Positions 21,001-24,000 of a stretch of DNA of 26,413 bases are shown piece after piece; within the stretch, counting starts at the first letter, position 1, and every line of letters starts with the position of its first letter. This stretch comes from a virus (taxonomy: Duplodnaviria; Heunggongvirae; Uroviricota; Caudoviricetes), in IMG/VR virus record IMGVR_UViG_2778261064_000014. One strand, given 5' to 3'. Position numbers: made by a program.

Positions 21001-24000
21001 TCCGCCACCTGATTGCAGACCGACCACCAGGATAATTCAGCCAGCGATAATTCCCGCTCCTGTGTGCCATTCATTGCATGGCGTATGACGTCAATCATCC
21101 ATGCTGACAGGTTTTGATGAGCAAGTTGCTCCAGTGATTCGGAGGTCTGGTCACGCAGCTGGTTGTCGCAGTGCCAGCACAACACCATCGCGCCGGTACC
21201 GTAACGATGTATGACGGTTTCACTGTGATGGTAATCACCATGAGGCCACTGGCAGGATTTAACATGACGCAGGAGCCAGTCAGACAGTGCACCAGCACCG
21301 CCTGCAGCGCGAATCACCCGTTCGTTGCTGAAAAATGGCAGTAATGATTTATCTTCCGCCAGCGGCTGGCGAACGGCAGGAACAACTCCGGACGGCAGAC
21401 CGCGCATGCTTTTCGGTTCCGGCTCCACCAGCACTCGAGGATTATGAAATACCCGCATGGATTCACGGCCCGGCTTTAGCACCACCAGTCCAAGTTCCGG
21501 TACCGGAACAGGTCGAAGCAATACCCGCACGTTACCTCCAGATCCGTTGCTGTAATGTGCGGGACGGACGTGGTGGGCGTTCGGAATAAGGGAGTCTGAC
21601 GTAGATTATCCAGAGACGATAATCGAGGGTGAGGGCTTTCCTAAACTCATACCCACGTCTGCGGTAGTTCTGAATCAGCCATTCGGCCTGTTCTTCAGTG
21701 CAGGGATCGTGCTGATACCAGTCATATTTGAATGCATGAGAACGCCGCCCGTGCCTGCTGGCACGAACGGTATCAGAATTGTGTAATTTGGTCTTGTGCG
21801 CCATCTGTTTTCTCTGCTGGCGCAGCAGGTGCCAGTTGTTCAGGCTGGCGTGCGGCAATATTGTCTCTGATTTCTGTTGTCGTCAACAGGCAACGTGCTA
21901 TCATCGAATAGTGTTCTATCCTACTCCGTGAGGTTTACCATGCGTACAACCCAACAATTCAGCATTACATTAACTAACGAAATGGCTGACATGGTGCGCG
22001 CCCGTGTGGCTTCCGGTGCCTATGCTTCAGAAAGCGAGGTCATTCGTGAAGGACTTCGCGCACTGAATGAGCGCGATAAAGCAATCGAAGCGTGGTTAAC
22101 GCATTCAGCCGCCCCCTCTCTTGATTCTATCCGCGAAAATCCAAACAACGGACGCTCCATTTCACAGGTTCGCGCCACGATTCGATCCGGGAAGTAATCT
22201 GCATGACATATGAAGTCATCATTACTCCTGAGGCCGAACAACAAATAATCAACCTGCACAGATATATAACGGAGAAAACAGGGAACGTCATTGCTGACAA
22301 TTATGCCAATGCGCTTCTTGATTATCTTGATGGGTTTTCTACATTCCCGCATCGGGGCAATAAACGCGATGATATTCGCCAGGGGATGCGGGTAACTCAT
22401 TTCCGCCACAGAACGATTATTGCTTTTGCCGTTGATGACAGAAAAGTCTTTATTGTCGGTATCTATCATGGTGGGCAAAGTTATGAAACCGATTTCTTAT
22501 AAACTTTTACCCACATCATTCCGGTGTTAGAATAAACCATCCGCCCCCTCTCTTACTGGCGGATTCGTAGGCTATATAAATCAAAGATCCCGGCTCATGT
22601 TTGTGTCGGGATCTTTTTTCGGCGATTTATCCCCAGCGGCAAATCGAATACACCACCAGCGCCACCGCCATCGCAATTCCTACCGTTGTGAATGCTTCAG
22701 GCCAGGTCATCGATTCACCTCCTGCGGCGGTTCTGGTAGAGGCATCCAGTGAGTTGCCTGCTCAATACCATTACCCGGCTTAATCGTTGTTTCTCCTCGC
22801 CGAAAGGTGCTTCCGGTATAGCGTGCTGAGCATATTAGCGGCTCAACCAGATCACTATCGAAATTCACCGAAATAAGCACGTTCTGATTCTTTTCCGGCA
22901 TTCGCTCACTACAGCTTATCCAACCATCCGGAGTTACCGGAGAGCTGGTTGACGTTTCCGAGATTTCCCGAAAATTGTTGGTTGACGAATTCGTATTTCC
23001 CCGAAATTTTCCGCCATGAAGCACGGCGGCGTTATATCCATCCGCGAAAATCTCTGCTTCTTCGTTATTCAGTTCGGCACCAAGTTTAAGCGCAATAGCT
23101 TTTGCCATTGAGGCGGTAATTTGATGGCATGGCTGACGTCCGTGAAGCATGGCGTCGCTCCGCTCTATGCCATCCAGCGCAATTCGAAGCGCATGAATTG
23201 TAGTGATGCAATCGTTTGGGGTTATTCCGTATCGTTCGAATACAGCGATATGGTTGCGCATAATCGCGGGTGTAAGCTCTTTGTAAGCAAGAGCAAGAGG
23301 TCCAGATACATCGTTCAGCACTACCGTCATCGGTGAGGCGGCGTAGACTTCAATAATCCCAGTATCAATAGGCCATTCCCCATCCTTGATATAGTAACTT
23401 GTTCCGTCAACTTGCTGTTCTACAATGTGGAAAGTACCTATTGGTTCTGCTTCCAGCGATGCCAGTGCAATTTTGAATAACTCGCCCTCTACCTGTGCCA
23501 TCCCTGAATTTGGGTGGCATTTCGCAATCGCTATTTTTAATTTGGCTTCTTCGATTAATTGCTCTTTGGTTAATTCTGCCATTTTTATTACCGCCCTTTC
23601 GGGCGGCCTCCTGATGATTGAGGGTGCAGGGTTCCCTCCAGTAAAGGATTAATCTTTATTTACAATGCTGAATTTAATTATTCAGATTTGGATTCCGCTT
23701 TCAGAACAGCCTCTGCCATTCTGATATCTGAATTTTCTGAAATCATCTTTTCTGGTGAATCGCAGTCACCACCACATTCAGTAATGCGTTCGTAACCAGA
23801 ACGAATTGTGATTTTATACGCATTAATCATTTGCATAAGCGCGTCTGTCAATTCTACAATGCGTTTGTCTTTATCTTCCAGTTCATCAAGAACCTTCTTT
23901 ATGGCTGGTGAATGTGTCATATAACTCGCAGCCGGACCAGCAAGCATTATCCTGAGCTGTGCTTTCGCTTTTTCTATTCTCATCTATGCCATCACCTTGT

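Follow-up and report, generated by a model that had tools for sequence, protein, structure and literature searches.

A predicted ParD-ParE toxin-antitoxin operon carried as moron cargo in the nin region of a lambdoid Escherichia coli prophage

The parDE locus

The IMG/VR record IMGVR_UViG_2778261064_000014, a stretch of 26,413 nucleotides of Caudoviricetes DNA (the whole of which is here termed the window), contains a plus-strand gene pair that an original prediction, made from the sequence alone, had described as a parDE toxin-antitoxin cassette with its own promoter, operator, and terminator. The gene, promoter, palindrome, and hairpin features of that description are all present at or near the places where it had put them. 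Very probably, the two genes make up an intact ParD-ParE operon of the type II toxin-antitoxin class, one that is ordinary in kind and situated on a self-contained prophage moron. The two genes are:

21940-22197, plus strand: parD, ATG start, 85 aa, ribbon-helix-helix antitoxin
22203-22502, plus strand: parE, ATG start, 99 aa, predicted toxin of the ParE subfamily

The parD gene is preceded by a Shine-Dalgarno sequence, GAGG (21930-33), located 6 nt 5' of the ATG, and a gap of 5 nt separates its stop (22197) from the ATG of parE (22203), giving a compact bicistronic operon in which the antitoxin gene precedes the toxin gene. The same order is seen in 15 of 17 homologous loci of the contig set, with no upstream parD open reading frame (ORF) called in the remaining two (L019 and L021). 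That this is the sole plus-strand pair in a minus-strand block was corroborated by a 98%-identical annotated prophage of E. coli OkiPb01676, in which the 35 features from the terminase to replication protein P are all on the minus strand except for ParD and ParE. The proposed placement in the nin region also held, parDE being located between P and a DUF1133/Q-type antiterminator. The host element is a lambdoid, subtilase-cytotoxin-carrying E. coli prophage, and parDE is transcribed against its early-right operon.

Two other readings of the frames were set aside. A parD start at a TTG codon (21877; 106 aa) was ruled out, with the N-termini of homologs, the Shine-Dalgarno sequence, and RefSeq agreeing on the ATG at 21940, and a minus-strand ORF overlapping parDE (22020-22478, 152 aa) was treated as spurious and has no support. 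The start codon is also at issue in the record of phage ArgO145 (L002, NC_049918, 4382-4588), where the antitoxin is annotated as a 68-aa protein from an internal ATG; homologs and RefSeq favor the 85-aa form beginning MRTTQQ.

Family, fold, and conservation of the two proteins

Hidden Markov model searches bore out the identity of both proteins, each of which scores above curated cut-offs. ParD matches the Pfam family PF03693 (ParD_antitoxin) with 32.2 bits (cut-off 21) and TIGR02606 with 53.3 bits (cut-off 46.2), and ParE matches PF05016 (ParE_toxin) with 40.9 bits (cut-off 23) over profile positions 1-89 of 89. Among the PHROGs, they fall into full-length families of the moron category, namely phrog_6494 ('antitoxin', E = 2.7e-56) and phrog_5232 ('toxin', E = 8e-43), respectively. 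ParD displays the N-terminal ribbon-helix-helix domain of a ParD-family antitoxin encoded upstream of its toxin and, in matches covering residues 6-51, resembles the solved ParD antitoxins 3kxe, 7ycv, 6x0a, 7b22, 8c24, and 5ceg.

Three search results weigh against our reading of the locus: ParE has no match in NCBIfam; its sequence similarity to solved ParE proteins is weak, the best match being the Mesorhizobium toxin 6x0a (E = 0.005, 24% identity); and, at a threshold of E = 0.01, neither protein is recognized by any of the PADLOC defence models. The lack of an NCBIfam equivalog match for the toxin also lends something to the rival view that it is a RelE-like ribosome-dependent mRNA endonuclease and the module functionally a RelBE system, as do the breadth of PF05016, which covers both ParE and RelE, its RefSeq name, which reads just 'RelE/ParE family toxin', and the existence of RelB antitoxins that are also ribbon-helix-helix proteins (PMC10776004). 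The predicted structure of the toxin argues for the ParE subtype instead. An AlphaFold2 model built with 19 homologs as input (predicted local distance difference test score, pLDDT, 83) has two long N-terminal helices and a three-stranded sheet, and in a Foldseek search of the PDB its best 23 matches are all ParE-type (template modelling score, TM, 0.71-0.80), namely the toxins of Mesorhizobium and P. aeruginosa, PfiT, Vibrio ParE2, O157 ParE2, PrpT, M. tuberculosis ParE1/2, and Caulobacter ParE1. RelE, YoeB, HigB, and YafQ rank below these (TM 0.42-0.61), such that the modelled toxin fold is that of the ParE subtype rather than of the RelE/YoeB/HigB subtype. The antitoxin, in turn, matches the ParD-specific models and solved ParD structures, not RelB. 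By the fold ranking and these ParD-model matches, the module has neither the RelE-type fold nor the RelB-type antitoxin of RelBE systems, and we regard a RelE-like activity as very unlikely.

Both parD and parE are intact and under strong purifying selection. They are full length relative to homologs of four genera, and their ratios of nonsynonymous to synonymous substitution (dN/dS) relative to the Salmonella orthologue are 0.07 and 0.12, respectively. In comparisons with Yersinia, Erwinia, and Enterobacter the synonymous sites are saturated (proportion of synonymous differences, pS, at least 0.72), with a proportion of nonsynonymous differences (pN) of 0.13-0.25, and 22 residues of ParE are invariant across 19 sequences. 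Together with a promoter, Shine-Dalgarno sequence, and terminator that are intact by sequence, these values speak against a decaying or inert passenger with an inactive toxin and an antitoxin kept solely as a regulator. Toxin loss does occur in the lineage, as exemplified by the orphan parD of the Shiga toxin 2a (Stx2a) phages, and the comparison of ArgO145 with the window yields a dN/dS of 0.3 to 0.8 at a divergence (1.6%) that is too small to show selection; even so, we accord the inert-passenger view hardly any credence.

The module is already known at the level of annotation. The identical ParD protein is named 'MULTISPECIES: type II toxin-antitoxin system ParD family antitoxin' in NCBI, the identical ParE protein bears the RefSeq name given above (contigs: 129 and 132 for the two proteins), and relatives are likewise annotated. 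The full parDE segment is found in 324 of 5426 complete E. coli genomes, many of them Shiga toxin-producing E. coli, and in four phage records, including that of ArgO145, where the pair is annotated as toxin and antitoxin. A literature search turned up no paper testing this particular module, only a note on orphan ParD proteins (PMC12502783). As a toxin-antitoxin module it hence adds little, its proteins being already named in NCBI and both listed as moron families in PHROGs.

The upstream region: promoters and candidate operators

The following features were delineated upstream of parD:

21877-21904, plus strand: predicted parD promoter, with TTGTCG (21877-82), a 16-nt spacer, and the extended -10 TGcTATCAT (21896-904)
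21874-21889, no strand: palindrome CTGTTG-tcgt-CAACAG, perfect, with 6-bp arms; probably not the operator
21907-21925, no strand: candidate ParD operator AATAGTGTT-c-TATCCTACT, an imperfect palindrome across the predicted transcription start
21857-21886, minus strand: putative relic divergent isrK-type promoter, with TTGACG (21886-81), 18 nt, and AATATT (21862-57), from a consensus scan

An alignment of the parD 5' regions of enteric homologs whose neighboring synonymous sites are saturated reveals four conserved blocks, viz., GTCGTCAAyA (which contains the core GTCGTCAA), GTGCTAnnnT (the extended -10), AATrGTGTTynATCCTACT, and the Shine-Dalgarno sequence. The retention of GTGCTAnnnT in the Salmonella, Yersinia, Erwinia, and Enterobacter homologs points to a parD promoter at this position. 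The TTGTCG-16-TATCAT arrangement of the original prediction is indeed there, but calling it near-consensus was generous, since it matches the consensus at 9 of 12 positions; the 4 promoter-like sites in 21500-22800 are not above the shuffle expectation of 2.3 +/- 1.5.

The perfect inverted repeat overlapping the -35-like hexamer is likewise present at 21874-89, but its proposed role as the operator fared less well. Perfect 6-bp inverted repeats with a spacer of at most 12 nt number 159 in the window (0.6 per 100 bp), and because such repeats occur at chance frequency this one is uninformative on its own. Its left arm matches at 2/6 positions in Yersinia, 2/6 in Erwinia, and 4/6 in Enterobacter (it is lost in the loci L017, L023, L025, and L027), leaving just the non-palindromic core, whose distance to the -10 varies by 4 bp among homologs; distant homologs have no motif of this type and instead display a different conserved palindrome.

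The core itself coincides with the -35 of a divergent promoter. According to Rfam searches of the loci of ArgO145, the Stx2a phages, Salmonella, Yersinia, and Erwinia, the cassette is immediately divergent there from isrK and the C4 antisense RNA, which represent an antirepressor control region resembling P1 immI. The minus-strand form of GTCGTCAA is TTGACGAC, which, with TATATT 18 nt downstream, forms the isrK promoter, so that the plus-strand blocks GTCGTCAA and AATATA are the isrK promoter in these relatives; in ArgO145, Salmonella, Yersinia, and Erwinia, the promoter blocks end 7 nt before the Rfam-defined isrK 5' end. An Rfam search of the window found neither isrK nor C4, and the -10 there is changed from TATATT to AATATT. 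Since the conserved half of the palindrome is the isrK promoter -35 in relatives, the palindrome appears better explained as an accident of the minus-strand -35 (TTGACG) of a relic isrK-type promoter that travelled with the cassette.

Autoregulation by ParD via CTGTTG-N4-CAACAG still has points in its favor beyond the perfection of the repeat and its overlap with the -35-like hexamer: the E. coli and Salmonella copies still have the palindrome (its arms measuring 5 bp in ArgO145), and it is common for ribbon-helix-helix repressors to bind at more than one neighboring site (PMC10776004). Moreover, the relic-promoter explanation is itself weakened by the conservation of GTCGTCAA in an Enterobacter locus lacking isrK; because the block persists there, it may also serve parD, acting as a -35 element or giving ParD another binding site. 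On balance, we find it rather improbable that 21874-89 is the site of autoregulation.

The imperfect palindrome at 21907-25 appears to be a better operator candidate. It is nearly invariant in the enteric homologs and lies within the third conserved block, which separates the -10 from the Shine-Dalgarno sequence. Of 13 distant loci, drawn from Paraburkholderia, Polynucleobacter, Pantoea, Winslowiella, Scandinavium, Dyella, Desulfovibrio, and Bordetella, 12 carry a palindrome, (A)GTAGGATTnAATCCTAC(T), upstream of parD, at about -41 to -20 from the start, and 21907-25 is the best match to the palindrome AGTAGGATTnAATCCTACT in the entire window (26.4 kb), at 14/18 positions. The palindrome overlaps the -10 in the distant relatives; in those of the loci that were examined by eye, the promoter is of the form TTGACx-17-TAGGAT, and its -10 is the left half of the palindrome, TAGGAT. 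In the window, 21907-25 lies downstream of the -10. The N-terminal ribbon MRTTQQ(F/M)SITL is almost identical in the distant proteins and the window ParD, implying that their DNA specificity should be shared. On the other side of the ledger, only the right half of 21907-25 is intact, the left half being degenerate (5/9 complementary pairs), and a 14/18 match is reached in 15% of window-wide shuffles, such that the case for this operator rests on its position and cross-species conservation. For work on autoregulation, 21907-25 with its ATCCTAC half-site would hence be worth probing, and not just the eye-catching -35 palindrome.

Two further observations concern the upstream region. The relic promoter now points at the 90-aa gene, DUF968, rusA, and the Q antiterminator, and could drive N-independent transcription of these genes. 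In relatives, the 5' flank of parD contains a GGTTCGAATCC-like string that had raised the suspicion of a tRNA 3' end; ARAGORN found no tRNA, and Rfam identifies the string as isrK and the C4 antisense RNA. Within the cassette, Rfam recovered no known RNA family past threshold, only chance-level matches at E >= 0.3.

The 3' region: hairpins and a predicted terminator

Both hairpins claimed to follow parE are present, the second with a T6 tail:

22539-22564, plus strand: hairpin 1 of the 3' untranslated region (UTR), with a 7-bp stem and a 12-nt C/U-rich loop, -10 kcal/mol
22583-22619, no strand: predicted intrinsic terminator (hairpin 2), a 34-nt hairpin at 22583-616 with AAA upstream and T6 downstream

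Hairpin 2 was missed by a simple terminator scan because its loop exceeds the 8-nt limit of the scan, and was revealed by folding, with energies of -20.7 kcal/mol for the plus-strand form and -14.8 kcal/mol for the minus-strand form, which has a UUUGAUUU tail. The hairpin and its T6 tract are internal to the cassette and occur just in parDE-bearing genomes (326 genomes); other homologs have different hairpins directly 3' of parE. With the conserved extended -10, this cassette-internal terminator sustains the notion of an autonomous antiparallel unit with a predicted promoter and terminator of its own. Its minus-strand form suggests that hairpin 2 may also terminate the early-right transcripts of the phage after a 27-aa ORF that borders the cassette. 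The nin terminators of lambda are read through by N-modified polymerase, and a bidirectional hairpin 2 would resemble these.

The parE 3' UTR (22506-22619, plus strand) has a layout reminiscent of a small RNA that is specific to the cassette (326 genomes), with a promoter-like TTTACC-16-TAGAAT including a TG (22506-33), the hairpin with the C/U-rich loop, an A/U-rich linker, and the terminator; this segment matches no Rfam family. A 17-nt direct repeat, CA(G/T)CCGCCCCCTCTCTT, occurs inside parD (22106-22122) and at 22538-22554, with 16/17 positions matching, and its second copy forms the 5' arm and loop of hairpin 1. By a back-of-envelope estimate, chance would yield about 0.002 such repeats per 1 kb; the E. 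coli cassette has the repeat, and the 3' region of the Salmonella homolog lacks it.

Boundaries and mobility of the cassette

Comparison with related prophages delimits the mobile unit and its right-hand neighbor:

21855-22625 (771 bp), plus strand: parDE moron cassette
22627-22710, minus strand: 27-aa hydrophobic ORF MTWPEAFTTVGIAMAVALVVYSICRWG, outside the cassette, at the right-hand recombination boundary

In the sibling prophages of O157:H7 LSU61 (L003) and ETEC6 (L004), homology to the window ends at 21854 and restarts at 22626, and a Hok/Gef gene with a sok RNA (Rfam, 113-117 bits) takes the place of parDE. The left junction is at a CGTGCG microhomology, and the right one immediately follows the stop codon of the 27-aa ORF, the start of which overlaps the stop of the DUF551 gene (ATGA). 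This ORF is kept in about 1370 of the 5426 genomes, adjoining either parDE or hok/sok. The slot in the nin region thus holds either a type I (hok/sok) or a type II (parDE) toxin-antitoxin module. Phage ArgO145 shares 21857-22712 with 97.7% identity in another genomic context, with the cassette in the early-left arm, beside an antirepressor and antiparallel to its neighbors; likewise, the homologs fetched from Erwinia tracheiphila, Yersinia enterocolitica, and Enterobacter ludwigii reside in prophage or insertion sequence contexts, antiparallel to most adjacent genes. The precise boundaries, the hok/sok alternative at the same site, and the second location in ArgO145 together support the proposal that the pair was acquired as a moron.

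Several side observations pertain to these boundaries. The 27-aa ORF is missing from the RefSeq annotations that were inspected and is sometimes deposited as a 'bacteriophage protein'; an 88%-identical copy (L030) differs by 5 synonymous and 3 conservative codon changes; and it clusters with 121-aa Shigella DUF551 proteins, which may represent a fusion. In prophages of Salmonella (L006, 2589-2739) and Erwinia (L025, 1152-1471), hok/sok and parDE are found within about 1.5 kb of each other, flanking an isrK/C4/antirepressor unit on opposite sides.

As for the remainder of the prophage, a subtilase-cytotoxin-like AB5 locus (15615-17542, minus strand) is situated downstream of Q (19561-20115) and three tRNAs (Ile, Arg, and Arg, at 17939-18185), in the position occupied by stx in Shiga toxin (Stx) phages. 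It comprises an S8 peptidase (16046-17077) with B-subunit-like genes on either side (15615-16049 and 17129-17542). The nearest relatives of the prophage are from bovine E. coli from Okinawa.

Proposed mode of action and biological role

We propose that transcription starts at about 21910-12 from the extended -10 TGcTATCAT and ends at the hairpin and T6 tract of 22583-619. ParD dimers, either alone or bridged by ParE, would repress the promoter at the imperfect palindrome AATAGTGTTcTATCCTACT (21907-25), which spans the start. The ribbon-helix-helix dimers of Vibrio ParDE2 recognize imperfect palindromes with GGTA/GTAC-type motifs, and the extent of repression varies with the ratio of toxin to antitoxin (PMC10776004); if the pattern measured there is followed, derepression would ensue at toxin excess. 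As in other members of the family, a labile ParD would neutralize ParE through its C-terminus and, when not replenished, leave free ParE, which would act as a poison of DNA gyrase and thereby penalize the loss of the prophage or the disruption of host expression by a superinfecting phage. The ParE toxins that have been studied are gyrase poisons; if this one is too, its release could, speculatively, feed SOS-dependent induction of lambdoid prophages and hence toxin production.

Those prophage-borne ParE modules that have been studied act by stabilizing the prophage after its excision or by modulating the production of phage (PMC8706911, PMC7264888, PMC13048266), and the sharing of a slot with hok/sok fits a stabilizing or selfish role. 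By analogy, prophage maintenance or production would be the most plausible role here. The same slot-sharing can also be viewed as the mark of a cargo hot spot, and it is among the observations that would favor anti-phage abortive infection or superinfection exclusion, rather than addiction, as the main role, with the orphan ParD of the Stx2a phages as a counter-defence. In this vein, homologs adjoin immunity or exclusion genes (SieB, antirepressors, C4/isrK); the Stx2a phages keep parD (86% nucleotide identity) with parE reduced to 7 codons; and an anti-toxin role for orphan antitoxins was proposed by the authors who noted them (PMC12502783). Conversely, neither protein is matched by a PADLOC model, our literature search found no ParDE shown to defend against phage, and the studied prophage-borne modules act in maintenance or production (PMC8706911, PMC7264888). 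Abortive infection is, moreover, compatible with addiction. We consider a primarily defensive role fairly unlikely and retain prophage maintenance or production as the preferred reading.

A more elaborate scenario would join several of these threads. In it, the gap in the nin region from the 90-aa gene to the 27-aa ORF would be a hot spot for swapping type I and type II modules with gene-precise boundaries; parDE would provide a superinfection or abortive-infection defence that is countered by the orphan ParD of the Stx2a phages; and the relic isrK promoter and a bidirectional terminator would rewire N-independent transcription into the Q/subAB late region. As a whole, this combination strikes us as doubtful. 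The interchange of parDE and hok/sok at one nin site of Stx- and SubAB-type prophages nevertheless bears on the stability of prophages in pathogenic E. coli.

Comparison with known systems

The solved ParDE systems, namely those of Mesorhizobium (5CEG/6X0A), Caulobacter (ParDE1, 3KXE), Vibrio cholerae (ParDE2, 7R5A), M. tuberculosis (ParDE1, 8C24), and P. aeruginosa (6XRW), share with the window cassette the antitoxin-then-toxin operon, a ribbon-helix-helix ParD, and the ParE fold. ParD may autoregulate at an imperfect palindrome with GTA/TAC-type motifs, as measured for VcParD2 (PMC10776004). The window proteins differ from these systems in showing just 13-24% identity to them, and their carrier is a lambdoid prophage rather than a plasmid or chromosome II.

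The PaaR-PaaA-ParE system of E. coli O157:H7, which is encoded in prophage DNA, also has a toxin with the ParE fold (PDB 5CW7; TM about 0.8 to the window model). The cassette does not belong with this system: it contains two ORFs and no third regulator gene, and its antitoxin has a ribbon-helix-helix domain, which PaaA lacks.

In terms of its carriage as prophage accessory cargo, the module is comparable to ParESO-CopASO of the Shewanella prophage CP4So (PMC8706911) and to PfiT/PfiA of Pseudomonas Pf4 (PMC7264888, PMC13048266; PDB 9w3a), both of which likewise couple a ParE-family toxin with a DNA-binding antitoxin; PfiT is the second-best fold match. In contrast to CP4So, which is P4-like, and Pf4, which is filamentous, the carrier here is a lambdoid phage, and the antitoxin families and hosts are different.

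The hok/sok modules (of the hokD/relF type) occupy the identical slot, bounded by the leader of the 90-aa gene, which ends at 21854, and by the 27-aa ORF, which starts at 22626, and are presumably functionally equivalent selfish or stabilizing cargo. They differ in having an RNA antitoxin and a membrane toxin, in being transcribed with the phage strand, and in being unrelated in sequence.

A further parallel concerns the orphan ParD and HigA antitoxins reported in the enterohaemorrhagic E. coli Stx2a phages phi346 and phi349 (PMC12502783). The parD of the Stx2a phages (LC7278xx series) has the same promoter/operator blocks and an isrK/C4 neighbor, and what is left of parE there reads MAYEVPH*, where the window has the complete pair. 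Downstream of this remnant, LC727840 (L005, 2584-3562; also L002) has a lipoprotein-like ORF of 93 aa and encodes a HigA-like helix-turn-helix protein of 101 aa, and the orphan parD region adjoins isrK, C4, and an antirepressor. By sequence comparison, the orphan ParD proteins of these phages are remnants of this parDE cassette, the complete ancestral pair of which is preserved in the window.

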